A stretch of 64,000 nt of DNA, from positions 310,001-374,000 of the forward strand of contig QPGO01000045.1 in assembly GCA_008632985.1 (NCBI GenBank), read 5' to 3'. The stretch's first letter is position 1. Every line of letters starts with the position of its first letter. Shown in pieces: positions 1-62,349 of this stretch. The position numbers were made by a program, and so were the translations under genes. The notes under the pieces are model-generated. The model worked only from the letters and a program-made list of their open reading frames with translations. It searched no databases and was not told the origin of the DNA. Origin of the DNA: Psammoneis japonica. Taxonomy: Eukaryota.

Positions 1-224
1 GCGAAAGGCCGATTTTCTGCGCAGTTTGGCGCAATTGGCTCCTTCAATGTTGATCGTTTTGAAAATCGAAAGGCAAGTGTGCACCCGAAAACACATGTGA
101 AGTGTGCACTTGCCCTTGGATTTGGCAAAAAAGGATTTTGAAAAAGTCAATTGCGCTAAATGCACAAATTGCCAAATGATGGGAATCGAACCCTCGCGGA
201 GCACCTGGAGCTGGAACAGGCCAG
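1..224. mobile_element. Right part of a MITE-like element, same family as 9477-9744
   Basis: Aligns by eye to 9516-9744 and ends in the same terminal repeat GAGCACCTGGAGCTGGAACAGGCCAG. Confidence 0.75.
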
Positions 225-684
225 TCTCGGAAGCGTGTCTTCCACAGCAACAAGAGCTCGATGGGGAACAACAGTTGATGAGTCAACAGCCGTTAGTCCT
301 GCAAATTGCACGCCAGCTCAGATGACACTTCATTGTGCAACACGCACCTCAAGAGCAGTGCGAGTCAACAAAGTTGCTGCACCTCATCTCACAGTTCCTG
401 GGTTGAAGACAAGTGCGGGTGACAAAGTGTGCCTTGGAGACTTTCGGCGAGGCTCCTTTTTCCATTGTGCTGCCGCTTTCCATGCTGAAACAACACGTCA
501 AATCCGACGAGATCAGAGACGTCCCTGGCGCCAATCACGATCTGCCTGACAACAGCAACACACAAGGGCTGCGCCGGCACCTGCACCCGCACCACCAGCC
601 AATCTGGAACAAGAAGATGATGAAGCAACTGACAGTGAGGAGTTCGAGTCAACCAATGAAGATGATGATGAAGATGTCAACTGC

Positions 685-2906
685 TTGTCCGAAACACTTG
701 CCACAGCTGACATTGAGTGTGTGAGGCAATGTGAAGCTTCAGCCAGAGGTGCCTGGGCCGGTCAAGCATCCCTGTCACATCCTCACCTTGACGACCCACC
801 TGAGACCGAAGAAATGCAAGACTTGTTCTCAGCCGTGAATGGAGACGGTTTTCACAGCATTGACAGGCCAAGAATGCCAGTCTGGCACATGCCAAAAAAA
901 GCTTTAAAAGTGGTGCTTCGTGAGGCCGAACATGCGCGGAACCCACAGAAGCTGCAAGAAGCAAAGCAGGCGATGATTGAAGATGGATTCACCGAGAACG
1001 ACATTGAACTGGAAATGTGCCATCGAGTGAAATTCTTCCGAGACTGTGTCGACCATTGGAAGCTGCCACTGAGACAGTTGTGTTGGCAAGTCCGTGCTGC
1101 ACATGCGCTGTTGGGCGACAAAAAAGACGGTGAGACAGGACAGCCACTTTTCAACAAGAGGGCATGGAAGAAGGCAAACAGTGTTCTGAAAGCCACACTT
1201 GCCGGGTGCATGCCCGATCCTCCTGGAGTGCAGTCTCACACGCTGCGCCTCAACAGTTCAGGAGAACCATTGAAGAACAAGCACAGGTTTGGTCTGCTGA
1301 ACTGCAGCTGGGGAACAAGTGATGCAGAGTCCATGCACAAACAAATCGTCGCAACTTTCGGGACATGGTGCACCAGTGTTGAAATGTTGGATTTCAATCA
1401 TCGATGCTCAGAATGTTGGTGCCAGGGCTTTCCGAGGATTGGTCATTGTTTTGACACTTGGCTGACAGATCGGCTGCAACTCCTTGTTGAAGACAACCAT
1501 GGCACACCATTGCATCCCGAATGGACCAATTCAAGTGACTGCAAAAGCACGCCAGAGAGCTTTGACACAACTCCATTGCACAGTCAGGAACTGGCAAACG
1601 CTGTTGAAGGCAGACATGCTCCAGCTCCAGGTGGGACCTCGTGCCACTGCACTGTGACATCAACAGTTTTTTGGATCACGTCGCATGTCGCGCACGTGCA
1701 TTTCTGCATGTCAAATTCTACGAAATTGTTTCACACTCCCTGTTTTGCAAAGCCAAAGGCTTTCTATTTTCATCATTTGTGAGAATGAAAATGCACTGGG
1801 TGTGTTCTTCAATGTCTGAAGAACACACCCGGGCAAACTGTCAATGATGTGCTGCAAGCATGAAGGAGGAGATGCATCCGCAAAGTTGCCTCTTTTTCTG
1901 TTGATGATCATTTGCACTCTCATTGCAGCACAAATTTGCTGCGGAGCTCGCACGCAGAATCGAACTCTGGAACAAGAGTGACAAGTTAAAGCCGGGTGAG
2001 GAACATGAAGTGAGATTGACAAGAGACCAGGTGCATCTTGCAGCTGCCATGGGATCAAAGCTGCCATTCTCACCTGTTCGCGGAGTGGACGAGATGAGAC
2101 TTTTCTCCAGGCTTCGTCCAGAGTCTCGTCATGATGCCCACAAGTGTGGCATCAACTGGACCAAGTGCTGCAATGGCGCAACCATCTTTCCAAAGCTCGA
2201 GGTGCACCACAACATGTGTGGCGAGTGGTGGAAACAAAACCAAAGGACCAAGGATGCCATTCAAGGTGCAAGAACTGTTTTCAAAGCTCTTGAAAACTTG
2301 AGCCAAACTGTGCAGCTGGGCGCACACAACAGAGATTCAAGCAATGCTGCAATGGAGCTGCTTGGCAATGACAGTGGTGAGACACCAAATGGCGGTGCCA
2401 GTGCAGTGGAAGGTCCGTCTCAAACTCAACAGGACCCTGCATTTCACAATGCACATTGGCCCACACCCTTGACACCACGCACTCTCGACTTGCCATTGCA
2501 GTGTGTTCATCACAATGACAAAATGCCAACCACAGTTGGTGGGATGCAGATGTGTCCCCTGCACCGTGTGATGCCTGAGATGGAAGAAAATCCAACAACA
2601 GTTGGAAGAAGAGGTGAGCGCAGCAGCAACACCAGGAAACGAAACAGCCATCATTGCATGCACTGCATCCGACACTGGGGAGACAAGGCACTTGAATGTA
2701 GAGGCCGACACCCAAGGCCAGGACAAGAGAAATGTGGGCATTTTAAAAGTGATGGGAGCCCCCAAAACTCTCAGCGTGCGGAGAACAAAAATCAAAGCAA
2801 ACGCACCACAAGCATCCACAGTTTTCCAAATCTCTTGACAGCGGCAAAGAGGTTGACGAGCCGAAGGCAGCACTTTTTTGTCATGCCAGCGGTGGTGGAC
2901 AGCTGA
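685..2906 (+). pseudogene. Decayed putative transposon-associated protein
   Basis: ORFs 685-1782 and 1923-2906 almost lack Tyr. Motifs PLFNKRAWKKANSVL, DPPGV and GTSDAESMH resemble the DPPGV...RGT/SxxEx.H pattern of eukaryotic putative transposase-like proteins. A TIR-like end interrupts it near 1616. The family is uncertain. Confidence 0.4.
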
Positions 2907-4614
2907 ACAAAACACCATTTCATTGCCTTTCGTCTTTGCCATTTTGCCAGTTTTCGATCCCCTGAACGAGGGAGCACCGCTTGCTGGCACAAAGTCATGA
3001 GAACAAAAAAGTGGGATGTGACGGCAGCCAGACAACTCAACCAAATCAAGGAGCGCCATGACACCTGTCAACAAGCTCAAGTCTGGTGCAGAAATGATGT
3101 GACAATGAGTTGACAAGACTGCAGGTGAGCGACACAAGATGAGCAACAATGTCAGCAGCAGAAAAGGTCACGTGCCACTCGGGATGACAGCATCTTTGAC
3201 ATCCACACAACTGCAGACTTGCATGAAATGGGTGGGTTGTGCGCTTCTGAATCTGTTGAGAAAGAACAAAAACAGCAACGAAAGCGGCGAGCAACAGGTG
3301 CTTGAGTGACAGCAAAATTACACAAGGCAGTTGTTGTCCATTTTTGGGTTCAATCTCACCTCTCTTTGGCGACAATGTCTGACACCGCCTGTCGCCGCTG
3401 TCATGGCCTCACGAGGGAGATTCTCAGCTCGCGCTGGATCGCGCTTTTGCACACATTTCCACATGGTCTAAAAAACTTTGTGTGTGTTATCTGAAGGTTT
3501 TTGATGCCAAAACTGACGTTTAACCTTATATTTTAATTTTTATATCATTATAATTTAACAATGGGCCATTATTTTCGTTTATTCATTCATCAGAGCCCAC
3601 ACAAGGCTTTGTGGTTATGAAGCAAAGGGGGAACATTGGAATCCGCGTGACTAGTAGACCCCTTGAAGGTGTGACGCGATTTTTTAAAAATGTTCGGTTC
3701 TGATTGGCTGAGGGGATCTCTGTGACGCAGTTTTTTAATCAGTTCCCCCCCCCCACGTGTTCTCTGGTGCAAATGTACATGCGCAATTCTGGTACAAAAA
3801 ACAGCGTAAACTCGGGTCGAGCTCCACAATCGATCTAAAATCATCTAAAACAATTGCGAGCTCCGCAGCAATGGGCGTTAGGAACGGCATCGGAAACGAG
3901 CCACAAAAGCAGCGCCTTTGTTGCCGCTTGAGCAGCAAATAAAGAACAGAGTCTCTCCTCTTCTGTTTTCTCTTTTTTTCTCTTTTCTCTTTTTCTTTTC
4001 CTTTTCGGTCTAAAATGCGCTCCAGTGGCATGGTCTAAAAACCACATTGCACGAGTTTGTCGTGCAATTCACAATGCCATGGGGTGCGTTCGTTGTGTTA
4101 CGTTGCATTCGAATGTACCCCCAACGTAAGTCAATTTCGTGTCTATTTTTCTTTTCATTCGAGATCTCTTTACTGACGTTGCTTTTCATCTTCATTTTGT
4201 CAACATAAAAACACACCCTATACCCGGTTCGACCACCCGACTTGAAACGATGCGGCAGTCAGTCTTTATTGAAGTACTAAGGTTCAAGTAACAGTGGGTC
4301 CCGCCCCGAGACTTATGTTTTCCGGAACAAAATGTGTACCAGGCATGATTGGTGCTTCAATGCGAAATGACCACTCTGTATTTGCTCAAGACCCGCGGTA
4401 GTCAATGAACCAAACCCTTACTTATTTCGGACGCGGAGAATGAATTGTGGAAGAATGGAAATAGTTAGGTAAGTATTGGCGTCACGGAATGGCTTTGTTT
4501 ATGCTCCAGGAAGGATAGCGGCTCCTCCCTAAGGTATTAAACGAAGGAAAGCAGTCCGTGGCGTCTAGAATAAATGTATAGAAGTTGCTTGTTGAAGTGG
4601 GTTTTCGGTCAAAT

Positions 4615-5766: not shown

Positions 5767-8700
5767 GAGATCTGTGTCGCAAAAAATAAAGCCGACGGCA
5801 ACCCGAGTTGCTCTGTTGTCGCCTTGCCTTCGCTTGTACCTTCTACTGTACTTGCGTAGCAATTGTTCTGAGTTGATTGCTCCTCTACAAGAAGTTGAAA
5901 ACTATGAAATAAGCCCATTTCAAAATATGGCCGTTTTGTTCAATGCCAAATCGCTGCCGACAACTCGCCGGTCTCGATCACATGTCATTCACGGTTCACG
6001 AAGGAAAAAGCCGATTCATCATTTCCAATTGGTTCACAGTTTCCTTACCTCATCTTTTTTGTTTCTTATGGACACAAGGACTCATTGATTCTGCTGTTTT
6101 GAGTGAATTGTCCTCGAAACTATCCTCACACCCTAGAGTTGCTTCGTACTTGTTCCAAAAGGGCTACAGCTCGACTTCACCGTCACGATACCCGTGTCTT
6201 TGTACCCGTTCAAAACGTTTAGCATGATGCAAGGGACACGCATACATGCGATTACCATTCTTATATGGAACAAAGCCCTTTTTACACGGCGTAAAGTCAA
6301 GTGTACGTTTACCGGGAGAAGCAAATTTCAGAGTGGCTTGCACAATCGCTCGGCCTTGAAGTGTGTAGTGTGTCACTGCCAGCCGATTCTATGTAGTGAC
6401 CACCACCATACAAGTCCCCGTTCTTCGTTGGATATCCACAAATATAACCCCACGGAACTTGTTCAGTACAACTCGATTTGATTTTATATCATTCACTCGG
6501 AAGAATTCCGAAATCAAGAAACTTGCTCTTGTAAGTGTTGCGTGTTGTTGTTATGTTGCTGACTTGATACCTTCTCGCTTAGCTTCTAGTGCTAATAACC
6601 TGGCTGAAGAACGCTTCTTGTTTACGGGTATTACGGGTATTCCTTGGGCACACGTGCCGTGATTTTGTGGTGCCATGACTTGTTGCGGATGTGATGTTGT
6701 CTTGGTTGCAGCCGCTACTTCATCCAGCAAGTGGCTCATGGTCTCACGGTGAATGAATGCGATGGCTGCGCTGGTGCCTGGCTCGCCTGGCCTACCTGGC
6801 GAGAGGTCGTCTGTTTTCCGACCGATGGTGCCGCACACGGCACCATAATCGCCACCGTAGAACAATGCTGAATTTGCCGTAGAGAATCTTTCCGTTGGAA
6901 CAATTTTCGATCGCTAAAACTGCGTCCGACAATGCACCTCCGAGGATGGCGGAGATGTCTTCAGATGGGTACACCCGAAAGCTGTGTCAATGGAAAAGGC
7001 TACGTGCATGTCAGTTGTACAGCTTCTAAGGACCCTGAATGCTGATTCAAGTTTGAAAAGGGCGTGCTGTTTCGCCTGTCAAGGGAGACGAGTTCAGCGG
7101 TCTCGATTCTCGATGGCTTGCACTCGGCATCTTGTGTCTCACCAAGTTGCACTTGCAACAGAGAGAATGACAAGAACAAAACAAGCCATTGCATTGATCT
7201 CTTTTGGGTCACAAGCACATGAGTGTTGCCATGAATTCATCATTGTTTGACTTTGTTCTTTTGTTGTAGTCTGGTGGTTGCTTTCATGATTGCCTCGAGA
7301 AGAAAACGGACGGCACTTTTTCTGAAGAAGATCTTCGTTTATTTCTTGACTCCATGCAGGACAAGTGCTTGACAGATTCAACATCAAACCATCCAAAGTG
7401 GTGCGCGGACAATGACCTGGGAAAGATGTGAAGACAACCTGCCCTCCTGCCATTCAAAATGTGTGTCGGTGGGCCAGCTGGCGCCACTGACGGAGTTGGG
7501 TGTGCTGTCCACAGTTTCAGTTTTGTTGGCATTGTTGGTGGTTTGCACCAGGCAACCAGCATGCTTTGGAGTGACTCCAAAAGTTGCTTGGGCACTCTCT
7601 GGAGAGAGCTGTTCATTGTTGTGCACATGCTGATTGGCTGGGCCACCATCAGCGCGCAGAGAACAGGGCAATCCATTCCATGGCTGTTTGTGTGGTCACA
7701 GCAGAGAAATGTGCAAACTTGCACAGTGTGAGTGTGACACAGTCTCTGAGGAAAGAGCTGAAGAGTGGCTCACATTTTGAGCAAGATCTCCATGACTCTT
7801 TTGGCAGACAATCAGATGAAGAATGGGTTGAAGTCTGCAAATTGGCTCTCCCATGCACTGACGCCATTGTCTTTGAACAGCAGTTGCCACAAGCATGAGA
7901 TGGATGTCTCAAGTGAGGAGTTTAGAGTGGAAGGAACTGAGTGACCAAGAGTTGTGTTGGTCAGTGTCATTCTCTTGTTTGGCTTGGGCTCTGCAGAGTT
8001 GGGCAGGGTTGACGCAATTTGGCTCACCTCCTTGTGTGCTCTTCTCAGTTGTTCATTTGAGGCACCAGTTGTGTTGCAAATTTTGGCGTGCCTCTGACAG
8101 TGGAAGATTGGTTTCCAAAAAGTGAGACCACTTCATTCTGTCATCCTGTGCAGGCCATCAACCTTCAGCCATGCTGCTTGTGCTCAGCTTCCAACCATGC
8201 AATGAGGGGGCGAGTCAGAGAACAACAAGCCACATCAATTTTTTGCAAAACAACAGGACACCATTGGGAGCCATCTTTGCCAATGCTGCACCATCTCTTC
8301 ATTGACAATGTGTTGGAGAGGTTGCCTGGCTGCTGATTTAGCCAGGTGTGCAAGCCGCAGTTTTGTTTTGTTTGCATGTTGGCTTGCACGCCCATGCACT
8401 CAAGTGGCTCCAAGAGTTGTGCCCAAACTGCACTTTTTTGAAGCCATTTGTTGTCATGTGTGCCAACCAGGCCACCATCAGCACAGAATGGGACAATCCT
8501 TTCTGCTGCTTCTGTGCTGACTTGAAGCAAAAATGCACAATCTTGCACAGCAAAGAGTGTGGCACAGCCTCTGGAGATGAGCTGACAAGTGAGCAGCTCA
8601 CATTTTGAGCAGGATCACCATGATTTGGTTGATGGAGACAAGGAAAAACACGTGGGCATTTCAAAACCTGGATTTCCACACTGATGCAGCCAGCTGTTGT

Positions 8701-9476: not shown

Positions 9477-9744
9477 CTGGCCTGTTCCAGCTCCAGGTGC
9501 TCTGCTTTTCATCACGCGAGAGGCCAATTTTCTGCACAGTTTGGCGCAGTTGACTCCTTCAATTTTGATTGTTTCGAAAATCGAAAGGTGAGTGTGCACC
9601 CGAAAACACATGTGAAGTGCCGCACACTCACCCTTCGATTTGGCAAAAAATGGATTTGGAAAAAGTCAATTGCACTGAATGCACAAATTTTCCAAATGAT
9701 GGAAATCGAACCCGCGCGGAGCACCTGGAGCTGGAACAGGCCAG
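9477..9744. mobile_element. MITE-like element, about 270 bp, with 26-bp terminal inverted repeats
   Basis: CTGGCCTGTTCCAGCTCCAGGTGCTC (9477-9502) and its exact reverse complement (9719-9744). A second copy lies at 1-224. Confidence 0.8.
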
Positions 9745-48040: not shown

Positions 48041-48072
<32 letters not shown>

Positions 48073-52479: not shown

Positions 52480-53700
52480 TGTCTGGTGACTGCGTGAATC
52501 GCTTTAATCCATACACAGTAGACTGACTGGACCATACAGAGTAAGCTGCAGATGGAGCACGCACAGCTTGATCATGCTGGGGCTCACTTCCTTGATCTCC
52601 CAGACAACTTCCTGACGTTGTGTTTACAATGTTCGAAGGCAAAGCTCTGCGTTGCTCAAATCCTCTTCGAGTTCCACCGTGTCCATGGCTTCATTCTCCT
52701 CTGCATCATTGACGTCTGCCAGAACCTTGCTCGATGGTGTTGGTGAGCTGTTCAACGCATTTCTGACTTGTTGCTACTGTTCCGCTGGGTCTTGTAGACA
52801 TGATGCTATTTCTTCGAATCTTCCTCCTTGGCTCCAGGCTCTTCAACGTCTCTCGAGAGCTGCGCAACTTCTTGTTTGGTGTCCTCGATTGCCTTCGACT
52901 TATCCGCCCCGATTGTTTGTCTTGACCTTTTCATGTTCCTTGACAGTATCCCTTATGTCCCTCACCAAGTCGTGCAACTCTTGCTCCTTCGTCTTGACGG
53001 GAACCCTGGCGCGTTTGAGGTCCTTTTTGGCAGAGACCGCATGTCTTGCATCCTCAGTGAACGGCTTCATGGTAGCCTGATTCTCCTGCTCTTCCTCCGA
53101 GCCAGTCTCGCTTTTCTCTTGAGTTTTTTGTTGCAACTCTGCTCCATCCCGTTTTCATCCACAAGCCTATAGCCATTGTATCTACCGCCCCTCGAAATAG
53201 AGCGCTCTAGTGCCCTCCCGTTAGGAAGTGAGGAAAGATTCGCGAGATTGGTATGTTAGCATATAGCTGCGAAAACAACTTACGAAACAACAACCAAACA
53301 CCCAGAACATCAAACCACTTACTCCAGTCGAAATCGGTCTCCTCCCTTGCTTAATAAAGTCAATGGGACCTTCGCTCCGTTGGTGTTATATCTAACCTCC
53401 TTACGAATCAAGTCTTTTAGGTTACGCCGGCGATGCGTCCGTCGTGCAGCAGCACCGCGAGACTGATCTGCATACGGCGCCAAATCAAAATGGCCGGCTT
53501 GCCACTACTGTGCCCTTCTGGCCGTGCATAAAGTTGATATTGCGACAAAAGTTGACTGTGAGCTTCTTGTGGCACATAAAGTACTCGGCGTGAACGCGTG
53601 TACAATAATGCTGGCCTCTGGAGGTTTTTGCCGTGAGCGTTCAATGTCGTTGTTGCTTTCGCGGTACTGCTTCTGATGAACAATTGGGGTAGTCACAGTG
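52480..53700 (-). pseudogene. Disrupted coiled-coil protein gene fragment, identity unknown
   Basis: Charged helical-looking pieces (AKKDLKRARVPVKTKEQELHDLVRDIRD) are broken by stops and frameshifts. Confidence 0.3.
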
Positions 53701-54563
53701 TCATCAGAATACTCCTCAGCAAAGGTCAGAGATGCGTTATCTTGAATCTTTGACGACCTTATTACATGAAAGTTGTCTCCAAAGAGTTGACCCGGGCTGT
53801 CCTTATGTTTCGCAAGAAATAATGAAGCGCCGGATCAATCTTGGGGTTTGTAGGAGTGATTGCATGAGTAACAGAGTCTTGAAACAGCTCCAATGCCACA
53901 ATAACGCTGCTCAAAATAGACCAAGTGTGCCGTAAATTCAGTCGTTTCGCCGTTGCATACCGTTCAGTAGGGCTACAACATCAAGTCACAATCTCGCAAC
54001 GCGACGGACCGGGCGTAGCAGGAGACACACAATGCACATTTTCCGGTGCATCACAGCTCAACAAAGCTTTCCATAGAGGTATAGATTTCATTCACACAAG
54101 CTGTACATGACTTTATGGTCGAACGAAGGGTTTCGAGCTCACAATCGAGTGAAATACCCTGTGTTTTCCGAAGCCTTGTTTTCAATGGTTGTGACATTCT
54201 GCGATAATACTGAAGCTACCCTGATATTCTTAGATAAAAGAGGCACGTATTCCATAAGCAGTATTGGAAAATACTGAACGGTTGTTGAGCTACAAGACGA
54301 AGCGTTGGCGGCTCTCGTCATGGTGAGTGATTTTTGGCATCTTCGATCTTCAAAAGGTCCCGTACGAAGGCCGGACGGAACAGGTCGGTTCTTTTAGATT
54401 TTTAGATGATGAGAGAGCTATGATGGGAGCGTCGTCGCAATGACTTTCATTTTTCTGTAACAACTTCAAAAGGCCATAAAGCATCTCATACTTTTCTTTT
54501 ATAACGATCACAAAAGCAAGAGCAAAAAATCGAGCGAGAAAGGGGTGTCGAGCCGTCAACAAC

Positions 54564-56402
54564 ATGAGTCAAGAGCGTGCTCCGAATGCTGCACAGAACG
54601 AGGATGATGAACATCTCTTTCAAGTGGCGGAATGTTTTAGTGAAGAATCGATGGATTATGTGTCGCCCTTGCTATGCCTGCCAAGTACATGTCGACCGAG
54701 TCTGTCGCTCGAGTCATCGTCACCGTGGTACGACGTTTCCCGTGCGTCGCCAATGATTACCCATTGCCACATCTCCACAAGTCAGCAATCTCAGCAATAT
54801 CCGTTACGTCGCATAAGGTCCAGATCCCTTGGAGACATACCGTCAACACTATCACCTTCACTGCTCTTGCCAAGTAACCACGAACTTGGACAGTCGGACC
54901 GCTCCGCAATTTTCTCTGGAGACCCTGACGTTGCTGACGATGCAGTGGAGGAGTCTGCGAAACTGCTTGGGGAAGAAAAGGACAAATATGACTCCGTTGT
55001 GACCGATCCTGTACCTTCTTCTCAACAGAGACAGAGCGATGCTGACGAAAATAATGCATTCAAGCAAAAAGAGCCGAATCCAATTTGGGTTTCCATACTC
55101 TACGGACTCATCAACACCAGCATTGTACTACCCGTCCTCATGTCATTTGGGAGCATTATTTATTGTGATCCCGTCTTTGCTCCATACATGCCAACTTTGA
55201 TCAAGCTCACAATAGTATCGGGTATGGTTCATCAAGTTTGTTTTTCGTCTCTGTCGACTTTGCCTTTTGCCGTGGGACAAGTGCAGGATGCGGGTCTTAT
55301 CTTTTTGTCACAAATGGCTCGGACCATGGCTCAGTACTGCAGGAATAATGGTTACGCGGACGACGAAATGCTGGCGACCGTCACGGTTGGGTTGGGGCTT
55401 TCTACTGCATTGTTGGGATGCGGTCTAATTCTGATTGGCAAAGCACAACTCGCGCAGTGGGTTCAAGCCTTACCTACACCCGTGGTGGGAGGATACCTCG
55501 CATTTATTGGATGGTTCTGCGGACTATCTGGTTTCAAACTCATGTGCATTGATATCGACGACACGAACGCTGCTTCTCTTTTTGAGTCGCAATGGAAGTT
55601 TTGGTTGCCGGGCGTTGCTGGGGGGTTGTTGATTTACGTGCTTGTCAGATCGCTGCGACACATGGCGGTGTTGCCTATATGCATCCTCTTTATTCTCATG
55701 TTGTTCTATGCCAGTCTTTGGATAACAAACACATCCATAGCTCAAGCTACAGAACTAGGATGGATCCCGCATTCCGACAGCCAACCTCCCGTGTGGTATC
55801 ATACTTGGGACTATGTCCGGTTGAACAAGGTTGTTTGGTCAGCCTTGCCACAACAAGCACTTACGTTGTGCAGCATGATTTTTGTCGTTGCTATTTCTAG
55901 TAGCTTGGATGTCGCGGCGATTGAATTGGAACTCAAGAACCAGCCGCTAGACTACAATCGGGAACTGCAAATGGTGGGAACGAGTAATTTGGTTTCAGGA
56001 CTGGCGGCCGGGTATACTGGAAGCTACATTTTTAGTCAAAGTATCTTTTCTCTTCGAGCGGGAATCACTTCAAGATTAGCTGGTTTCGTTATCGCCGGCT
56101 GCGAATTGATTGTCTTTGTTCTCCCCTTCTCGGTTTTGTCGTTTGTTCCCAACTTCTTTTTTGGAAGTCTCTTGATCATGATTTGCATTGATCTAATGTA
56201 CGAATGGCTATGGGACGTTCGATCAAAATTCACGAGTGCGAGCTACATTACATGCCTTGGTACCTTTGGTTTGATCCAGGTGTTGGGGGTCGAGTATGGT
56301 ATCATTGCCGGAGCTTGTCAGTACTTGCTGGCATTCAAGTTAGGATTCAACATGAGTGATCGTAGCACCGTTGACAACGACGTCGGAACTGCTACGACAT
56401 AG
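54564..56402 (+). CDS. SulP/SLC26-family sulfate/anion permease (no STAS domain visible)
   Basis: 612-aa ORF with many hydrophobic segments and motifs FAVGQVQDAGLIFLS, LPTPVVGGYLAFIG, SSSLDVAAIE, DYNRELQMVGTSNLVSG and GYTGSYIFSQ. Tyr usage is normal. Confidence 0.88.
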   Translation: MSQERAPNAAQNEDDEHLFQVAECFSEESMDYVSPLLCLPSTCRPSLSLESSSPWYDVSRASPMITHCHISTSQQSQQYPLRRIRSRSLGDIPSTLSPSLLLPSNHELGQSDRSAIFSGDPDVADDAVEESAKLLGEEKDKYDSVVTDPVPSSQQRQSDADENNAFKQKEPNPIWVSILYGLINTSIVLPVLMSFGSIIYCDPVFAPYMPTLIKLTIVSGMVHQVCFSSLSTLPFAVGQVQDAGLIFLSQMARTMAQYCRNNGYADDEMLATVTVGLGLSTALLGCGLILIGKAQLAQWVQALPTPVVGGYLAFIGWFCGLSGFKLMCIDIDDTNAASLFESQWKFWLPGVAGGLLIYVLVRSLRHMAVLPICILFILMLFYASLWITNTSIAQATELGWIPHSDSQPPVWYHTWDYVRLNKVVWSALPQQALTLCSMIFVVAISSSLDVAAIELELKNQPLDYNRELQMVGTSNLVSGLAAGYTGSYIFSQSIFSLRAGITSRLAGFVIAGCELIVFVLPFSVLSFVPNFFFGSLLIMICIDLMYEWLWDVRSKFTSASYITCLGTFGLIQVLGVEYGIIAGACQYLLAFKLGFNMSDRSTVDNDVGTATT

Positions 56403-56452
56403 CATCAACTTGCTTCGAAAACTGCTACGACATAGCATCAACTTGCTTCGAA
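56387..56452. repeat. 33-bp tandem duplication spanning the SulP stop codon
   Basis: AACTGCTACGACATAGCATCAACTTGCTTCGAA occurs twice. Confidence 0.9.
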
Positions 56453-59129
56453 ACTTGATTCCTTTCCAATCAGGGCACGGCACGACGCAACAAAGAAGAT
56501 GACGTGCATTGCGAGAAATCCCAGGGAACCCCGTGCTAAGTACAAAGGATAAGTGGTTGGATACCAAGGATGTGCAGTGGGCACTCAGCGCTTCTCCAAA
56601 TCGCTTCCCTCAGGCAACGAGTTACTCGGAAATACGGCGCTATTACTCGTGGCGGCGTCTCTAAAGCGAAGTCAAATAGTACCTGGTAGGGCGTCGTCCT
56701 TGATACCGTCACCGCCTCTGCATCTTACCTCAACTATGGAATCTTGTTGATCGAGTGGGCAAATTGAAGTTAAAGGGAAGGGGGTATCGAAGCATGTCAC
56801 TTGTAGAGAATTGTCGTTACCTCTCCAAATCCTCCGGTTTTTGCGAAACAGGCCTTGTTCACCCAATCTCTTTAGTTATTTGTAAAGGAACGTCCTTCTC
56901 TAAAGAATCAAATCAATCGGAAAGCACCGCACTCGTTTCCAAGTCGAAGGAGATCATACATGCCGTACCCGGTAGTCCAACATCTCGCGCTGTTTGTAGG
57001 AGTCAATACGTTAGAGTTCTTCACGTCTCGTCGATTTCTCTACGGCACTTCTTGGATGATTCTCTTTCTAGCTTCTTTCTAGCTTCGAGTAGACGAAGGA
57101 TTCTCGGGTCTCCTGCAGGGCTAGCTAAGCTATGCTAGAGGGCCCTCTCTAGCTAGCTCTAGGCCCTCTAGCTAGATAGATAGTACTCTCTAGAGCGGCG
57201 GGATAGTACCCTCCTCACTCTGTAAGTTCAGATAGCCGTTTTTCGGTATTGTTCCTTGTACTTCTCTTTTGTGATGTTCCCATGCTCCAAAAAATCGTAG
57301 CGTAACGGTAAGAATAATAGCTCACACTCAGTCCAGATTCGTCGGAGGATGAAGAGAAACTGCTAACAAAGCAAACGCATACGGTAAAGCATCACAATCC
57401 ATAGAACCTCCCACTCCCTTTTTCCACCGCAATATGGTTGTACTATAATATCCGTTGATACCCGGGCCTCAATGCACAGTGCTTCACAGTCAGTCGCTCC
57501 ATACCATAGCGTTCCGTTGTTGTTAGTTGACGGAAACAAGCCTCCCAACGCAACGTTCGCCATGGCGTCGGCGACTTGCAGTCTGACGTGGTTGTATCAT
57601 ATGTAGGCGTGTGTTCGGAAATACTGTTTAATCTAAATTATATAATGTTGAAGCTTTTTTAATGTTTAAAAACATGCGCGCTCTCTTTATTAATATTTAA
57701 AAATAAATGGTGAAACACATAAATTTCATTTGATTAGATGGACTGAAATTTTCCAAAGGGGGTACATCATGATTTTTTTCAGTCAAACTAATCAAATGCT
57801 TTTTTATATGTTATTCGGCGAATAGAATATAATTAATATACTCTTAGTTGACTTAGGAAGGTATTAGTTATATATAGCTTATTGCCTTTATTATAGATTA
57901 TTATACCACATTAATCTCCATACATATAAATTGCCCGGGTTGCAGAATAATGATTCAAAGACGAAGGCATAAAAAGACAATGAACAATGACATCCGATGG
58001 ACGAGCTATGAGCGTTTAGATCCAGCCAATAGTCTCTTGCTTACTGAAAAAATCCTTCTCAGTGATCTCTTGAGCGCAAATGAAGAGATTCGTGATGTGT
58101 TGTAGCGTACAAGTAAAAGCTACAGCACTCCAAGATGGAAAGGAATGAATTGCACGCTCCTTCTCATGCTGTTGATGAGGCCCAAAAATGATTTTCTTCG
58201 TACAGTCATTTCCCTAAGCCGTCGCTTTCTTTTGGTTTCACATTATTTGATGGATCGATTCTCTCGCCGACACATTGACAGCGTGGAATCGAAGTGAGAA
58301 TAATGCAGATTACTGTTATATCAGCTTGCTGTCAATACGAATCGGCGCTCGTTGAAGCGGTACTTTTGGTAAATCAGTCGATACATTTATCGAACGAGCC
58401 GCAAGACTGAATCCGCGTTGGCCAGCATTTTATGAGATCTGCAGAACAAATACCAACATTAGAATTAAGTGCAACTGCAAGAGAGAAGAGTCGCGACGAT
58501 TGCCAACAGCAATATGATCGCCACGATGATGTGGGATCGATTGTGTGAAGAGGCATTACAGTAGCTTATTGACTGGCAAACTTATACCGGTGGGTTTGTG
58601 AAGAGGGAAGTGCCTGCCTGTTGTAGAGACAATTTTGGGGGGGGGGGGCTCCATTCAAGCTTTTATGCTTTCGTATCTTGCATCTCGACCGGCCTGCTTA
58701 GCTTTAGGGAGAGTGTCGTTAGTATAGTAATAGCTTCCTACCATAAGAGTTACTGCATATGTTTTGTTAGGGACTTTTCGAGCTCCCTTGCTTTCGGAAC
58801 TGGTAACGTGTTGCGCTCTCTACGGTATGTACTCTTCATCTACTACTAGCTGTAGTTTTTGCTCGCGTCACATACTGTATAGCGTAGCCTCGCAAAGCAA
58901 ATAATGATGTACGAATAGCCGAGGCATTAATGTAACATGACTGTTTCGATCCGCTAAGCTATTTCTATTTTCATTGCTACTCTGTGGCTGTTATAATGAG
59001 AGAGGCAAATTCTGGAGCTGACAGCTCATGTGTTTATAAGTAGTGAAAGTAATTGCCTGATCTCCTGGCATGATTCGCATGAGACGCGGCGCACGTAATG
59101 CCCTTCCAGAGAGCCAGGTGTCCCTCTTC

Positions 59130-59520
59130 CTACCTAGAGGCGACCACGGCGCAAGACTGAAACAATCCCATGCTTTGGCGTTTTGCCCGGAACAACCACT
59201 TGGTTTTGCACACGAGTCTTGACCACATCCAAGGGGATGTCAACCATGGGTCCCACACCTCCACAGATAACTCCCATGACTGACGAACGCCAGTGTGTTG
59301 CAATTCAGCAGTGCCCTGGTGTTCCAAGAGCTTTTTCTCGAACATTTGGCAGGCTGCAAAGTTGACTGCCTGACTGCATCCCTGCCTCATCATGGTGGGC
59401 ACCACACCCTTGTAGAGATCTCCCAATTCCTCCTCATGCAGACAATCACAAAGGCCGTTTGCAATGCATTGGTGTGTTTGTGATGCTGCACCTGAGATGG
59501 ATCCAATGATGAACATTTGC
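59130..59520 (-). pseudogene. Mitochondrial carrier (SLC25; succinate/fumarate or tricarboxylate-like) fragment
   Basis: LYKGVVPTMMRQGCSQAVNF, and in another frame the carrier signature PLDVVKTRVQ. Confidence 0.75.
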
Positions 59521-59668
59521 AAAGCTCACTCGCCATCAGATGGAGGAGAAAGGGGATTGAACAATCTCAAAAACAACCACAACAAATCATGAGTTTATCT
59601 CATGCAGAGTGAGGTGATGCATGTGGGTCGCTCAACATTGTGATTGAGAAAATCCAACAAGCTGGGAA

Positions 59669-59990
59669 TCAAAGACGAAATGCGGCCACCATGGTTTTCC
59701 ATTCAAACTCAGCCCACATGGATTGAAGGGCTTCGTCAGTGCAAGTTGTGGGGCAAATGTGATCCACAACAACCAAGCAAACATCATTGAGATTGATGTG
59801 TTGCTTCTCTTGTGTCCTCACTGCATTGACACAGCAAATGGTTCCTGAGATGTGCCCTGTCTTGCTGGAGGAGACCTTGACAGAAGCGCAGCATGTTGTC
59901 TGATCAAGAGGGCCAACACTTTGAGACTGCGGGCATTCAACAAACTTCGTGTCACCCATGGTGGTGAGTTACACCATCAAATCAGACATT
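59669..59990 (-). pseudogene. COPB1: Coatomer beta (beta-COP) appendage fragment
   Basis: ASVKVSSSKTGHISGTI...INLND...P.TCTDEALQSMWAEFEW matches the recalled beta-COP pattern KVSSTETG.IFG.I...FRSMWAEFEWENK. Confidence 0.8.
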
Positions 59991-61172
59991 GTGACAGGAG
60001 CACACAGAATCTCCAAGACAGCCTCCTGCCTGCCAGTCATGCACCATGAACCATGAGAGAAAGGCCTCCACTGGACATTGTTGTCAAATCCATTGAGTTG
60101 GCAGATGCAATTGAGTTTGGAACTCAGCAAACAACATGACATGATTTTGCATCATCCACACAGAGTTGCATGTTGTTCATGCACAAGTGGTGCTTTCTTG
60201 CTTTGCTTGCAATGCCAACAACCTGGAAGAACAACGCTTCGTGCTGATGATGCATGGGTGTTCCTCAGACAAATGCAACATCATGTTTGGCACCATGGTT
60301 TGTTGGGGATGTGATGTTGTTGTGGTTGCAGTGCCAATGCAGCCTCAATCCTGCTTGTGGCCTGTCATGGGCGGTGCAGTGGCTGCAGACCCAAAAGGCA
60401 AACCAAAGTCATCATGGTTGGCTGTCATCATGGCGAGCATCGCTGCACTCATTTTTCATTTCAGATCTCAGATTTTGACACATCTGCAAATTCCAAAATC
60501 ATGCAGAATCCACAAAGAATTGCACCAAATGAAATGTGGCTGCCAACGGATGAAGGCAAGTGCGGTGCATGCATGCGAGGGTGCACGCATGGCATCAAGT
60601 GCGTGCATTCCCAACATGGGAGGTCTCTGTGCAGTGTGCAAAAAAGGAGGAATGCGCAAAATGCATGTCATGGCCACATGAGACACACAGCAGAGCCAGC
60701 CTTGTCATCTTCATCCTCCTCTGGCAGGTGATGACTTTTCCGTGTCATCAACCTCATCAGAGGAATCATCATTGGCAGTTGCAAAAATTCAGAGCTTGGA
60801 AGACCTTCTGTCAGACAACAGCCTTTCTCTCTTGACAGCATGCCAGAGTCAATGCAATCTCTTTTCACAGCTCCAGAGAGAAGATGCCACCTCTCAAAAA
60901 GAGAAGGGACGTGTTCCAGTCCCAGGTGACACGCAAAATGACAATCAATTTTGAATGTAAATTGTGTGTCCATTGGTGCATGCAGCATTTACAAAATGCA
61001 GGCTGAATTCACCCTGTGACTGTCAATCATCATCAACTCCAAGTCATCTAAAGAACTCCTTTCTTCAGCTGAACTCTCTTGAAAAAGCCAACAGTGCCAC
61101 GCTCCTCCTTTTCTCTTCACATCCTCATCAAGGTGCTTGTCACCATCAGATGGCAGTCATGGCAAAGGCCAA

Positions 61173-61672
61173 CCCTTCAACCACCAGACTTGAGCAAATC
61201 TCCGCGGGTGGAGATTTGCTTGCTTGTGTCACAAACATGGCAAATGAAGTAATTTCAGATGTGTGCAATGTTTTGTTTGCGCGATTTTGTTCTGGAGCGC
61301 GCATTCGCCAAAAATCTGGAGGCACCCTTTTTGTGATTTAGAAAGTTCAATGTCGCCTTTTAACACCAGGTTTTTTGCAAGCTTCATCTGTGAACAGAGA
61401 GGAACTGAATCTCAACCTTTGACAATGCAGGTCATCATGAATTGCTGTCACAAATGGAGCAACAATGCCACACCCTGGGAGCAAATCTCCGCCAGTGGAG
61501 ATTTGCTTCCAACAAGCAAATGTGCATGGTGTGCTTTACGCAGATTGCACATGACATGACATTTTTGTGCCATGTTCATCACATTGTCACAAAAGTGCAT
61601 GACACGTCACACATCCTTGAGCAGAGCAAATCTCCACCCATGTGGAGATTTGCTCCCCTGGTGGTTGAAGGG
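61173..61672. mobile_element. piggyBac-like non-autonomous element (about 500 bp)
   Basis: TIRs CCCTTCAACCACCAG and CTGGTGGTTGAAGGG. The right flank is TTAA and the left flank CCAA. Three internal GAGCAAATCTCC..GGAGATTTGCT palindromes. Confidence 0.7.
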
Positions 61673-62349
61673 TTAAGAAGTGGGCCCAGATGCCTTGATT
61701 TGTGTTCCCAGCTTGCTTGACATGAGCATCTGGATGGGCTGCAAAAACAATTTTTTTTTGGACAGGAGCTCAGCCATCTTTTGAAATGGCCTGATGGCAC
61801 TCTGCTTTTTTCCACTTGAGGTTGCTTCTTGCACACACACGGCACATGGACCACTGGGCAGATGTGCAAGAGATTTTGGCTGTGTTCCCTCTGAAATTTT
61901 TTTGAAAATGCCATCATTGACAGCACTCCAGTCAAGATTGGTGGCAGCGGCATGGGCTGCATTGCTGAGAACATTGCAGCGCTGCAATTGTTCAAAAGCA
62001 TGAAAAAATCTCTCACCCTGCACTGGGCCACCCTCAAATCAATCGGCGGTGTTTCCTCTGAGTCTCTGAGTTTGACAAAACAACCAATGGAGCCATTAAC
62101 ACCATTGTTCAAAGTCTTTGGTGCAGACAAATGGCAAAGCCCAAGAACTTTGTGCGCATCCTTCTCTCTCTGAGAATGACAAATGTGACAGTGTCAATCG
62201 CATTGAAAATTCAAATTTTTATCTCAGCTCCATGTCACACAGACAACGAGACACGCAGCCGTCCAGCGAAGCGTCCAATCTGGGATCTGCATCAAGCACC
62301 CAGCCCATGAAAAACAAAGATTGCAGATTGGAGATTGCAGCACGGCATA

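Follow-up and report, generated by a model that had tools for sequence, protein, structure and literature searches.

We report four multi-kilobase blocks of a 64-kb window, the whole stretch of DNA analysed here, from which the dinucleotide TpA has been almost completely erased. The best explanation, to which we assign a probability of about 85%, is that these deserts are nuclear DNA of the ordinary host type, from a diatom-like alga, in which a locally targeted hypermutation ran to saturation. The cause is mutation rather than selection or foreign composition, and the change runs from TA to CA or TG. In cis, the process is restricted to sharp-edged tracts. An intermediate stage is preserved in the interiors of three sub-arrays of a 581-bp repeat, while identical sequence in the first copy, the solo copy and the flanks was spared.

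Four TpA deserts with abrupt borders

Sliding windows of 500 bp, TA positions and per-block statistics delimited four TA-poor blocks, to which no strand applies, at 1–3468 (D1, truncated by the window start), 7028–23581 (D2, 16.6 kb), 47265–52248 (D3) and 59136–62347 (D4). These limits lie within 10 bp of those in the first-pass annotation, which had proposed that the genome is partitioned in a way legible from dinucleotides alone, and such statistics indeed recover the partition. Relative to the TA number expected for each block from its base composition, D1 contains 9 instead of 210 (O/E 0.043), D2 46 instead of 1049 (0.044), D3 13 instead of 319 (0.041) and D4 14 instead of 223 (0.063). The six normal blocks range from 0.51 to 0.76, so that a mild TA shortage also exists outside the deserts. 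The O/E of CA+TG is 1.67–1.91 in the deserts (1.67 in D1) compared with 1.10–1.25 in normal blocks, and in the mass balance the 73.5 TA+CG lost per kb are matched by 73.9 CA+TG gained. Deserts reach a TA-free run of 1927 bp, whereas none in normal DNA exceeds 341 bp; with TA at its normal density of 0.040 per bp, a run of 1928 bp has a probability of about 2e-34. The desert pattern is therefore real and far outside chance. The switch to normal composition, previously put at roughly 100 bp, is abrupt and resolved to within tens of bases. For example, 11 TA occur in the 130 bp upstream of position 47265 and then none across 1.9 kb.

The deserts are also poor in CpG (O/E 0.14–0.58 compared with 0.87–1.04 in normal blocks), and CpG loss differs among deserts of equal TA saturation. 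The values are 0.58 in D1, 0.32 in D4 and, as the lowest of the four, 0.14 in D3, which also carries a TGG microsatellite at 47950–48131 (TRF), while D2 is composite, with 0.25 at 7028–11500, 0.45 at 11501–14500 and 0.58 at 14501–23581.

It is very improbable that the blocks are an artefact, either of modified bases that were miscalled during sequencing or polishing (CA or TG reported in place of TA) or of chimeric or contaminant sequence. Modified motifs can give systematic miscalls in some long-read base-callers. The sequencing platform is not on record, and the three read runs come from one sample that is possibly, even probably, the source of the assembly itself, so that read support is not independent of it. 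Nevertheless, k-mer contigs at a depth of 32–63 reproduce the edges with 0–3 differences: contigs of run X1 span the edges at 47265 (0 differences in 641 bp), 52248 and 59136 (3 differences in 1975 bp), and no contig of this run spans the edge at 62347. The three spanned edges speak against an assembly chimera. The word depth of D3 (33–71) is not discordant with that of its flanks (58–65). A systematic miscall would also not render identical local sequence as TA, CA or TG in different copies of the 581-bp repeat. Moreover, codon-level damage, divergence of paralogues with indels and CpG decay indicate real, old sequence change, and the mass balance together with host-type genes speaks against a contaminant.

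A tandem array caught midway

Next door to the deserts, a tandem array of four units occupies 24572–45989 on the plus strand. Each unit consists of a 1.35-kb segment X, n copies of a 581-bp segment S (n = 1, 5, 4 and 4) and a 1.97-kb segment Y, and the composition of the array is normal apart from the S interiors. The four copies of X are more than 99.5% alike and vary at 1 of 47 TA steps; the four copies of Y are equally alike and vary at none of 67. An open frame in Y (38690–40480) has neither a Pfam match nor relatives. Among the 14 copies of S, 44 of the 61 variable columns are exchanges between TA and CA or TG, and 26 of the 30 TA steps carry a mutation in one copy or more. TA, CA and TG coexist at 19 of these 30 steps, for which an ancestral TA is the sole explanation.

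The change depends on position. Partly converted tracts, again without a strand, extend from copy 2 halfway into copy 5 in sub-array 2 (30516–32434, TA O/E 0.28), over 36705–38039 in sub-array 3 (0.26) and over 42364–43683 in sub-array 4 (0.26). Interior copies retain 7–18 of the 30 TA steps compared with 29–30 in the first and solo copies: the solo copy of unit 1 (25917–26497) keeps 29, the other one being AA, and the first copies at 29817–30397, 36048–36628 and 41692–42272 keep all 30 each. In all three sub-arrays the converted tract stops near column 250–293 of the last S copy, and these last copies differ from one another at only 2–9 sites. Since the repeated X, Y and first S copies are spared, repetition per se is not the trigger. 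The S interiors show the same TA-to-CA/TG change as the deserts in unsaturated form, which bears out the earlier suggestion that the deserts are the saturated end state of one process. This view gains further support from a strand rule of about 80:20, set by the flanking bases, that array and deserts share.

Target motif and candidate agents

The young S tracts carry about 166 copy-level changes at TA steps, counts that are not independent events since some patterns are shared by descent, for example among the similar last copies. Beyond these we found about 18 other A:T>G:C changes, five CpG transitions, no other G:C>A:T change and one transversion site. CpG was changed in 5 of about 297 copies compared with about 166 of 270 for TA, and CpG decay is thus a separate, slower overlay with a roughly 50-fold lower rate per site in the young tracts. 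In the deserts, TA survival is 0.39 for TTAA, 0.18 for CTAA and 0.12 for CTAG and zero for GTAC, ATAC and ATAT (0 found, 366 expected). An additive per-strand model fits all ten contexts (likelihood-ratio statistic 105.7, 3 df) and, with neighbouring normal DNA as proxy for the ancestral composition, gives cumulative hazards of 3.2, 2.1, 1.1 and 0.5 when the A is followed 3′ by T, C, G and A, respectively. The process prefers the adenine of 5′-T-A-Y-3′. Correspondingly, TG is the majority outcome at 8 of 8 YTAY sites of the array and CA at 7 of 7 RTAR sites (Fisher 1.6e-4), and the split of about 80:20 was also recovered from tetranucleotide gains in the deserts. The rule does not account for two TA steps of S, gggTAaaa and ttgTAgcg, which are never mutated although the other strand offers the favourable TAC.

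CA and TG outcomes alternate by site within single S copies, so both strands were hit, in near-equal numbers. This pattern contradicts a route in which transcripts underwent ADAR-like A-to-I hyperediting and the edited copies were then reverse-transcribed and integrated. Such a route would give A>G with a favoured 5′ U (10.64898/2026.01.13.699255, discussion), but the S tracts were converted in place with their flanks intact, and no reverse-transcriptase domain was found in the desert ORFs scanned. We regard it as extremely improbable.

We propose that the A:T pair of TpA is converted to G:C, giving TpG on one strand and CpA on the other, and that the agent may be a TadA/ADAT2-like adenine deaminase, an enzyme type that naturally acts on U-A-C. 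Here the substrate would be DNA that is transiently single-stranded or silenced. The marked domains might correspond to silenced, CpG-methylated chromatin made up of small mobile elements and of host DNA that was duplicated or became pseudogenised, and the process could serve genome defence by inactivating them through missense changes and motif loss. The enzymes that act naturally on tRNA and the base editors derived from TadA share with the desert process a U or T before the target adenine and the outcome A>G. According to the portion of PMC12296453 considered here, native TadA depends on UACG, and TadA-8e prefers UA in single-stranded loops. Unlike natural TadA and ADAT2-3, the putative enzyme would alter DNA, and in contrast to the U-A-C-G of native TadA, TAC in this window is hit no more readily than TAT.

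The sequence outcome is identical whether A is deaminated or the paired T, in R-T-A, is modified or mispairs. A rather unlikely alternative, in which adenine deamination plays no part, is therefore a thymine modification, for instance TET/JBP-type oxidation to 5-hydroxymethyl- or 5-formyluracil, at 5′-R-T-A-3′ in silenced chromatin, with subsequent mispairing with G. 5-Hydroxymethyluracil prefers TpA in dinoflagellate DNA, and 5-formyluracil is mutagenic. What the sequence establishes is limited to the base pair and the bases beside it, TAY being RTA on the opposite strand, and co-location with CpG decay would suit a pyrimidine-directed chemistry. However, the off-target changes in the S interiors are all A:T>G:C, with a pyrimidine 3′ of the A in six of eight distinct contexts read on the A strand, and the U-A preference is documented for TadA-type enzymes (PMC12296453, in part).

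Desert contents and relation to known mutators

TpA erasure leaves no tyrosine codon, no TAA or TAG stop and no TATA-type motif, and it generates no new stops. Its effect is visible in a hypermutated glycerol-kinase copy inside D2 (17013–18812, minus strand), a 599-aa open frame without tyrosine. The frame matches FGGY_N (4.6e-51) and FGGY_C (1.5e-31) and aligns end to end with PDB 2d4w (1.1e-129), and its nearest relatives among the matches listed are diatom glycerol kinases (Odontella aurita, 58%). The 120 relatives listed have 4–11 tyrosines (6–11 in the 11 aligned). All four conserved tyrosines have been lost, two to His and two to Cys, and 38 of 239 conserved columns are altered. Five Thr>Ala and three Ile>Val changes are what TpA>TpG would produce at steps that straddle two codons. 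Such destruction of conserved residues in desert pseudogenes shows that the deserts are not under selection for function. It is accordingly extremely improbable that selection against TA (avoidance of a nuclease, restriction or mariner targets) or GC-biased gene conversion produced the pattern without a targeted mutator. The mildly low TA O/E of normal DNA (0.51–0.76) and the proneness of tandem arrays to recombination would fit these alternatives. Biased gene conversion, however, should favour weak-to-strong changes of every kind, whereas TpA accounts for about 166 of the roughly 184 A:T>G:C changes, and the edges are sharp to tens of bases. Context specificity thus already contradicts both.

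D2 contains host-gene remnants and old tandem duplications. A partial tandem duplicate of the 5′ part of the glycerol kinase (18176–19612, minus strand, period 932 bp) retains FGGY_N fragments (3.5e-11 and 3.2e-20) and differs from the main copy by 19 adjacent CA/TG double mismatches, so the duplication is older than the TA loss; the desert paralogue pairs show 19 and 15 such mismatches. D2 also holds a fragment of a 7TM class-C receptor (19625–20455, minus strand; 7tm_3, 4.3e-09). On the minus strand of D4 lie mitochondrial-carrier fragments (59137–59525; Mito_carr, 7e-07 and 6.9e-07), which end 13 bp inside the D4 border with no Mito_carr homology in the 17 ORFs of the normal DNA beyond it, and a coatomer-beta C-terminal fragment (59672–59968; Coatamer_beta_C 1.1e-08, Coatomer_b_Cpla 1.4e-07). 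The ORFs of D1 and D3 have no Pfam domains, and no TE or viral domain was above cut-off in the 285 desert ORFs scanned.

The first-pass annotation had placed the most intact genes, a kinase and a SulP gene, outside the deserts and most gene fragments inside. This holds for the intact SulP sulfate permease (54564–56402, plus strand; Sulfate_transp, 1.5e-17), whose top named relatives are diatoms at 51–62% identity; together with those of the glycerol kinase, these relatives put the host among the diatoms. It does not hold for the kinase. The longest kinase frame is the glycerol kinase inside D2, and the protein-kinase-domain ORFs in normal DNA (46135–47152, plus strand; Pkinase, 2.5e-15), beyond whose last stop codon D3 begins after about 110 bp, have only a partial match at 46135–46893 that covers profile positions 101–168. 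Several gene fragments do lie in deserts, but a UAA-transporter fragment (24244–24450) lies in normal DNA.

The idea that the deserts are repeat-derived domains stands only in part. MITE-like elements are present (2–224 in D1, with a second copy at 9517–9744), but in a self-comparison of the window with all Y-R steps collapsed, only 26 non-array matches remained, all from short MITE-like elements and from two old tandem duplications with periods of 932 and 847 bp. Deserts are thus largely single-copy within the 64-kb window. D3 shows no excess read depth, and D4 is high-copy only at about 60.4–62.2 kb, with summed word depths of 1220–3740 in bins 60401–62200. This region contains a dispersed element of about 770 bp (60908–61676, strand not applicable), TA-poor yet less saturated (8 TA), with 23 contigs at 61356 and loose ends at 60908 and 61676. 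The sparing of X, Y and the first S copies likewise speaks against repeats as such. An old inverted partial copy of X (22214–23573, minus strand), matching 24921–25673, is fully TA-depleted and terminates 8 bp from the D2 border. Opposite TA steps of the normal copy it has 15 CA or TG and one retained TA, and 11 such steps face a gap or another dinucleotide; among the six steps in high-quality columns, five are altered. The process targeted host-derived pseudogene fragments, MITE-like elements and the array interior.

Like RIP in Neurospora and other fungi, the process is a dinucleotide-specific transition mutator on duplicated or silenced DNA that saturates and leaves domains recognisable by dinucleotide indices; the cytosine methylation that accompanies RIP may be present here as well. 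A strict RIP-like homology trigger, in which duplicates pair and both are mutated, with the partners of the deserts elsewhere in the genome, seems possible but unlikely. The double mismatches put duplication before mutation in the desert paralogues, S arrays were hit only when at least two copies are present while the solo copy is intact, and borders coincide with the end of the inverted X homology (8 bp from the right border of D2) and with gene-fragment ends. Moreover, many diatoms have DNMT4, which is related to the RIP enzyme RID and whose function is not known, according to the part of PMC9998398 used here. However, X and Y (four copies, more than 99.5% alike, 1.35–1.98 kb) were spared, unlike in RIP, as were the first S copy and, in each array, the final ~290 bp. 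The X partner at 24921–25673 is pristine opposite a saturated desert arm, and D3 has no extra depth at a likeness of at least 90%. The direction is also opposite: RIP changes CpA to TpA and creates TA and stop codons, whereas here TA and TAA/TAG stops are destroyed and none created. Decay of 5-methylcytosine, known from methylated repeats of diatoms through DNMT5a (PMC9998398, in part), agrees with the CpG-poor deserts and with the products TpG and CpA, but cannot remove TA.

Locally targeted hypermutation remains the preferred reading, and the only matching report of targeted TpA erasure that we found is a 2026 preprint on an unrelated alga, the chlorarachniophyte Bigelowiella natans (Mettrop et al., bioRxiv 10.64898/2026.01.13.699255). 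Among the new mutations of its mutation-accumulation lines, 210 of 211 in one viral integrant and 20 of 20 in another were A>G or T>C, without exception at TpA; the targets are integrated giant-virus and virophage DNA, and the genome contains 124 TpA-poor, CpA+TpG-rich clusters. Shared features are the almost exclusive A:T>G:C change at TpA, seen as TpG on one strand and CpA on the other, the regional confinement, with rates very far above those of the surrounding DNA, the clusters left behind and an adenine deaminase as the favoured agent. In contrast to B. natans, where new mutations were directly observed, the changes here are deduced from copies, the host is diatom-like and thus a stramenopile, and the targets are host-type gene copies, MITE-like elements and an array interior, with no viral domains found. 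The words 'trinucleotide', 'flanking' and 'diatom' are absent from the main text of the preprint, supplements aside. Our blocks are saturated, with a TA O/E of 0.04 compared with a rho(TpA) of 0.45 in the viral region there, and they add a 3′-neighbour rule (TAY preferred to TAG, and TAG to TAA) and a position-dependent cis sparing of identical sequence.

TA deserts and their borders

Scanned in 500-bp windows, the sequence alternates between two composition states. Four blocks almost lack TA, and we refer to them as deserts D1 (1-3468; 9 TA, 210 expected from base composition), D2 (7028-23581; 46 TA, 1049 expected), D3 (47265-52248; 13 TA, 319 expected) and D4 (59136-62347; 14 TA, 223 expected), and to the remaining sequence as normal DNA. 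The first-pass annotation had described four such near-TA-free blocks from the sequence alone, and its coordinates proved correct to within 10 bp and its borders abrupt. It had also proposed that the domains can be read from dinucleotides, which holds in 500-bp windows as well as per block: the observed/expected ratio (O/E) of TA is 0.041-0.063 in D1-D4 versus 0.51-0.76 in the six intervening blocks, and CA+TG is raised in the deserts to an O/E of 1.67-1.91. CpG O/E is 0.14-0.58 in deserts versus 0.87-1.04 in normal DNA, with a G+C content of about 0.47-0.50 inside and 0.45-0.49 outside. The longest TA-free run measures 1927 bp, which has a probability of about 2e-34 at normal TA density. The borders are resolved to tens of bases. 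At 47265, 11 TA in the 130 bp upstream are followed by none in the next 1.9 kb, and at 3469 the change is from no TA in the preceding ~150 bp to 17 in the following 120 bp. A search for terminal repeats or target-site duplications at six block borders returned only 10-mers, which 61 of 200 random pairs contain as well. Of all 500-bp stretches in the window, the richest in TA is an AT-rich patch downstream of the SulP gene (57501-58000; G+C 0.33, TA O/E about 1).

Read evidence was taken from three runs of one public sample, available as contigs with the platform unrecorded and compared over positions 46001-64000; this sample may be the source of the assembly itself and is therefore treated as non-independent. 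Three borders are spanned by sample contigs, namely 47265 (641 bp, 0 differences), 52248 and 59136 (1975 bp, 3 differences), and none of the listed contigs bridges 62347 by at least 31 letters. Discordant read coverage, which the first-pass annotation had named as evidence that would speak against its reading, is not seen for D3 in this non-independent sample, where contig depth (33-71) is comparable to that of the flanks (58-65). High copy number in D4 is confined to 60.4-62.2 kb (depth 1220-3740, with 23 contigs at a single position). To the extent that these data allow a judgement, the deserts are not an assembly artefact. Of the 40 listed allelic differences in D3 between the window and other contigs, 4 lie at a TA step, 7 at a CpG step and 29 at neither. 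They give no sign of recent TA activity, and since most of them are unrelated to TA or CG steps, the saturated state is old and fixed.

Base changes in the deserts and in a neighbouring tandem array

Three lines of evidence from sequence comparison show that the direction of change is from TA to CA or TG. The first is a full-length glycerol-kinase frame of 599 aa inside D2 (17013-18812, minus strand; FGGY_N 4.6e-51, FGGY_C 1.5e-31; 1.1e-129 against PDB 2d4w across residues 72-569), which contains no Tyr, compared with 4-11 in 120 relatives fetched (6-11 in the 11 aligned). It is the only Tyr-free protein among the 241 fetched. Counting as conserved those columns in which at least 9 of the 11 aligned relatives agree, the frame keeps 201 of 239, and all four conserved Tyr are replaced, two by His and two by Cys. 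Further losses of Thr to Ala (5), Ile to Val (3) and Met to Val (1) fit TpA to TpG changes across codon borders, and those of Asp to Asn, Ala to Thr and Gly to Ser or Arg fit CpG decay. The second line comes from S, a 581-bp sub-repeat present in 14 copies in a tandem array at 24572-45989. At 19 of its 30 TA steps, TA, CA and TG all occur among the 14 copies, and TA is the only state from which a single transition leads to either of the other two. The third line is adjacent CA/TG double mismatches, 19 in the partial tandem duplicate of the desert glycerol kinase and 15 in the desert pair 7550-7900 / 8380-8720. They mark ancestral TA sites that were converted separately in each copy once the duplication had taken place. 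Compared with neighbouring DNA, the deserts have 44.7 TA and 28.8 CG fewer and 73.9 CA+TG more per kb; they are converted host-like DNA, and no further compositional change is needed.

The array preserves an unfinished stage. It consists of four tandem units of 5.65-6.2 kb, each composed of X (1.35 kb), n copies of S and Y (1.97 kb), with n = 1, 5, 4 and 4. X and Y are more than 99.5% identical between units, and only one TA step varies among the 47 of X, and none among the 67 of Y. The 61 variable columns of S comprise 44 exchanges between TA and CA/TG, 8 between CG and CA/TG, 7 other transitions and 2 other changes. TA is almost fully retained (29-30 of 30) in the solo S and in the leading copy of each sub-array. 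Fully interior copies keep 7-18 (12-23 changed), with CA and TG mixed in a pattern that differs between units, and the last copies are converted to about column 250-293 and intact beyond, keeping 18-20 (10-12 changed). The resulting converted tracts lie at 30516-32434 in sub-array 2, 36705-38039 in sub-array 3 and 42364-43683 in sub-array 4, and have a TA O/E of 0.26-0.28. In the S interiors we counted about 166 TA-step changes, about 18 other A:T>G:C changes and 5 CpG transitions; A>G or T>C outside TA steps occurs at 10 sites and a transversion at one, and G:C>A:T changes other than CpG transitions are absent. This spectrum points to a mutator that is almost purely A:T>G:C, and the conversion of tracts between intact flanks indicates that it works in place. 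Because X and Y are undiverged and interior S copies have changed at 12-23 of 30 TA, the local rate contrast must be very large. The part-converted S interiors of this adjoining array support the earlier view of the deserts as the same process at saturation.

The 82 TA remaining in the deserts are non-random by context. Survival relative to normal DNA is 0.39 for TTAA, 0.18 for CTAA, 0.12 for CTAG, 0.08 for GTAA, 0.064 for CTAC, 0.032 for ATAA, 0.012 for ATAG and zero for GTAC, ATAC and ATAT (0 found, 366 expected). A model with independent hits to the A of each strand, and a rate that depends on the base 3′ of that A, accounts for all ten context classes (likelihood-ratio statistic 105.7, 3 df, against a uniform rate), with cumulative hazards of 0.49 for A, 1.06 for G, 2.06 for C and 3.19 for T. 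In the array, TG is the majority outcome at 8 of 8 informative YTAY sites (copy counts 40:10) and CA at 7 of 7 RTAR sites (36:9; Fisher test on sites, YTAY versus RTAR, 1.6e-4). Thus, the flank 3′ of the A matters, as expected if the target is the A of 5′-T-A-Y-3′; were the base 5′ of the T decisive, the outcome would be the opposite. The favoured strand is used at about 80:20, a ratio recovered independently from the desert tetranucleotide gains. Read on the opposite strand, the motif is 5′-R-T-A-3′ with the T altered, which has the same sequence outcome as an A target. Four TA steps of S (columns 279, 312, 330 and 407; e.g. 30096-30224 in an intact copy) are unconverted in 14 of 14 copies. 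Two of them are of the slow TTAA type and two have a favourable TAC on the opposite strand, and the unconverted patch of about 130 bp coincides with the tract stop in every last copy. No RNA gene that might act as a barrier, or form a selected core of S, came to light (0 Rfam matches, 0 tRNAs).

Methylation-driven CpG decay shares with the deserts the loss of CpG together with a gain of TpG and CpA. However, it is a second, slower clock, and as an overlay it leaves the TA loss unexplained. Deserts equally saturated for TA differ in CpG O/E from 0.14 (D3) to 0.58 (D1 and D2 at 14.5-23.6 kb), and the young S tracts have lost about 166 of 270 TA copies versus 5 of about 297 CpG copies. In an inverted pair of X copies, one of them in D2, the desert copy has CA or TG in place of about half of the CpG present in the normal copy. 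Such a loss would be expected from cytosine methylation over a long time, and the deserts themselves would then be methylated; in diatoms, cytosine methylation marks transposable elements (PMC9998398). None of the approximately 1,490 desert RCAY/RTGY sites has drifted back to RTAY, and since about half of the CpG has decayed, the TA process has probably been active throughout. The residual TA may represent a balance of creation and slow removal.

Choice of domains and relation to known systems

Several borders lie near other features of the sequence. Kinase-domain ORFs stop about 110 bp before the start of D3, mitochondrial-carrier homology stops 13 bp inside the border at 59136, and D2 ends at 23581, 8 bp from the end of the old inverted X copy, whose normal partner is pristine. 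The carrier-homology stop and the inverted-X end mean that some borders are also sequence-history junctions; across 59136, the mitochondrial-carrier gene has no continuation into normal DNA. In desert paralogues the duplication is older than the mutation. In the S arrays, about 660-700 bp beside X and about 290-330 bp beside Y are protected, independent of copy number. A simple rule that any repeat is hit fails on these protected edges and on the spared repeated X and Y, and homology guidance in trans likewise fails on the edges. As identical S is untouched a few hundred bases away and in unit 1, guidance by sequence identity alone is impossible, and a trans-acting RNA guide is excluded on the same grounds. 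A trigger by chromatin state or DNA structure would fit best. Such a state could arise in short-period tandem repeats and non-genic mosaic DNA and be held off by active flanks, and the substrate might be transient single-stranded DNA, for example slipped or recombining repeats. The description of the deserts as repeat-derived domains in the first-pass annotation is accordingly borne out only in part: MITE-like repeats and a high-copy element of 770 bp lie inside deserts, but the repeated X and Y are spared.

The closest known case is the rhizarian alga Bigelowiella natans. In mutation-accumulation lines, two integrated viral regions are reported to mutate about 1000 times faster than the remainder of the genome, with 210 of 211 and 20 of 20 changes being A>G or T>C, all at TpA; the genome contains 124 TpA-poor, CpA+TpG-rich clusters, and the authors propose an ADAT2-like adenine deaminase and defence against foreign DNA (10.64898/2026.01.13.699255). 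Shared with our observations are mutations that are almost exclusively A>G or T>C (here in the S interiors), the restriction to TpA with TpG or CpA as outcome depending on strand, and delimited regions with a rate far above that of their neighbours (since unit duplication, 1/47 in X and 0/67 in Y versus 12-23/30 per fully interior S copy). In contrast, the B. natans targets are integrated viruses, whereas the deserts contain host gene copies, the array tracts are the interior of a tandem array, and no viral domain exceeds the cut-off in the 285 desert ORFs scanned; the window also belongs to a diatom-type lineage. Saturation differs as well, with a TA O/E of 0.04 in deserts against a rho of 0.45 given for the B. 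natans viral region. A 3′-neighbour rule and position-dependent sparing are seen here, and the words “trinucleotide”, “flanking” and “diatom” do not occur in the main text of the preprint. We found no report in the literature of a TpA-targeted process in diatoms or other stramenopiles, the B. natans preprint being the only match.

Fungal RIP introduces C:G>T:A transitions, mainly CpA>TpA, and thereby raises TpA. Where a duplication exceeds a few hundred bp, RIP mutates every copy; it needs a RID/DNMT4-type protein and acts before meiosis. RIP is a functional analogue of the process in the window, which runs in the reverse direction. Here, in addition, not all copies are mutated: X and Y in their four copies, each first copy of S and the normal member of the inverted X pair have been spared. 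As a lead only, we note that DNMT4, which is related to the RIP enzyme RID, is listed for 31 of 60 diatom species with its function given as unknown (PMC9998398). ADAR-type hyperediting acting via retrocopies would affect the transcribed strand only and place the copy elsewhere; here both strands are hit within one and the same copy, in place between intact flanks. Early adenine base editors had a “YAC” preference. Native TadA is described as needing U-A-C-G, and the evolved TadA-8e as preferring UA in single-stranded loops (PMC12296453); both TadA preferences agree with the T-A-Y target found here.

The finding is a TpA hypermutation signature of a recently described kind in a different major lineage, to which the window adds a target motif, a mass balance and a natural intermediate, so that the mechanism becomes testable. 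We consider it possible, with a probability of roughly one in three, that diatoms, and perhaps the wider stramenopile-alveolate-rhizarian group, have a cis-acting “inverse RIP” in which an ADAT/TadA-derived 5′-TAY-3′ deaminase is aimed at locally duplicated or silenced chromatin and not at foreign sequence as such. If so, every TpA would be turned into CpA or TpG until the domain is dead, by a logic unlike that of every known mutational defence: no stops would be made and TAA and TAG erased, genes would be killed through the loss of all Tyr codons and of TA-containing signals, and long open Tyr-free frames would persist, to be called as genes by gene finders. The S sub-arrays would then be a natural time series, and the rule at their edges, where the first copy and the final ~290 bp are spared, would report how the cell senses a repeat. 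In the literature searched, targeted A:T>G:C hypermutation at TpA has a single prior description, the 2026 preprint on a rhizarian alga, where it is presented as a response to integrated viruses. Its signature in a diatom-like genome suggests that, among the major marine phytoplankton, such a system either is old or has arisen repeatedly. New in this sequence are multi-kb TA-free blocks as the end state and host DNA and tandem repeats as targets. The TAY motif narrows the search for the enzyme, and in the natural intermediate identical sequence is hit or spared by position; domain mark and enzyme can thereby be tested directly. Furthermore, TA and CA+TG indices can map silenced domains from sequence alone, and models of mutation rate and GC content in these genomes need a local AT>GC term.

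Genes, open frames and repeats

The recognisable contents of the deserts are cellular genes or gene pieces: the glycerol kinase with its partial tandem duplicate and, by Pfam, a 7tm_3 receptor fragment, mitochondrial-carrier (Mito_carr) fragments in D4 and a coatomer-beta C-terminal fragment. Among 285 desert ORFs scanned against Pfam (135 of at least 90 aa and 150 of the 192 of 55-89 aa, the other 42 lying mostly at 17.0-20.5 kb in the glycerol-kinase/7TM area, 22.2-23.5 and 61.1-62.3 kb), none had a viral or transposable-element domain above the cut-off, a search that degraded elements could escape. The top sub-threshold match of transposable-element type was Integrase_H2C2 (E=0.006, 21549-21785). 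In normal DNA, 67 of 133 ORFs of at least 90 aa were scanned, the others being in repeated array units, mostly unit 2. Here, a UAA-family nucleotide-sugar transporter fragment was detected between D2 and the array (24244-24450, plus strand; 2.9e-14, profile positions 77-138 of 311), so that gene fragments are not confined to deserts. The first-pass annotation had placed the MITEs and most gene fragments inside the deserts and the two most intact genes, a kinase and SulP, outside; MITE-like repeats and fragments are indeed inside, the UAA-family fragment is an exception, and the account of the genes outside has to be amended, as the full-length glycerol kinase is in D2. Right of D4, normal DNA contains an ORF with a GPR180/TMEM145-type transmembrane domain (62840-63394, plus strand; 1.1e-08).

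By the genetic code, changes from TA to CA or TG should create no in-frame stop, except TAA>TGA (stop to stop), and should remove TAA and TAG. Long open frames consequently persist in the deserts, with 135 of at least 90 aa in 28 kb, and a dead gene such as the desert glycerol kinase would still look intact to a gene finder. Genes would instead be inactivated by the loss of every Tyr codon, by altered ATA, TTA, CTA and GTA codons and codon borders, and by lost TA-containing signals. In algal annotations, pseudogenes of this kind can be recognised simply by open frames that lack Tyr.

Among the desert repeats, a MITE-like element of about 225 bp occurs in two deserts (2-224 and 9517-9744; 89% alike, 92% after merging pyrimidine-purine steps) and also matches itself in inverted orientation. 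A further MITE-like short pair joins 14168-14262 and 60909-60998. The latter lies in a dispersed high-copy element of about 770 bp (60908-61676), a short piece of which recurs at 14168-14262; it has loose contig ends at both edges, exceeds the surrounding sequence 20-60 times in summed contig depth, and is TA-poor yet keeps 8 TA. D3 contains a TGG microsatellite (47950-48131; about 61 units, 80% matches) with higher-order repeats of 27-30 bp. It alone shows a strong TG-over-CA skew (+0.55); otherwise, no long strand-coordinated TG-over-CA run in the deserts exceeds the range of normal DNA.

In the array, one Y contains an open frame of 597 aa without Pfam domain (38690-40480, plus strand), which has no relatives at an E of 1e-5 or better; in each of the remaining three units, frame changes interrupt it. 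At the position taken by X in the other units, the last Y continues into ORFs with a protein-kinase domain, and the array may therefore consist of kinase-gene duplicates truncated to the 5′ part.

Among the relatives of the D2 glycerol kinase, diatom enzymes rank first (Odontella aurita 58%, Eucampia antarctica 54%), ahead of bacterial GlpK at about 50%. The best named relatives of the intact SulP gene (54564-56402) are also from diatoms: Fragilaria crotonensis (58%), Nitzschia inconspicua (62% over 70% of the length) and Seminavis, Cylindrotheca and Conticribra (51-53%). No near-identical protein was present in the protein collection searched. These affinities identify the window as nuclear DNA from a diatom or a close diatom relative, with no sequenced near neighbour in the databases searched. 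In contigs of the sample run, the SulP frame has a 9-base insertion at 55128, probably an allele. The 3′ end of the gene carries a perfect 33-bp tandem duplication (56387-56453).
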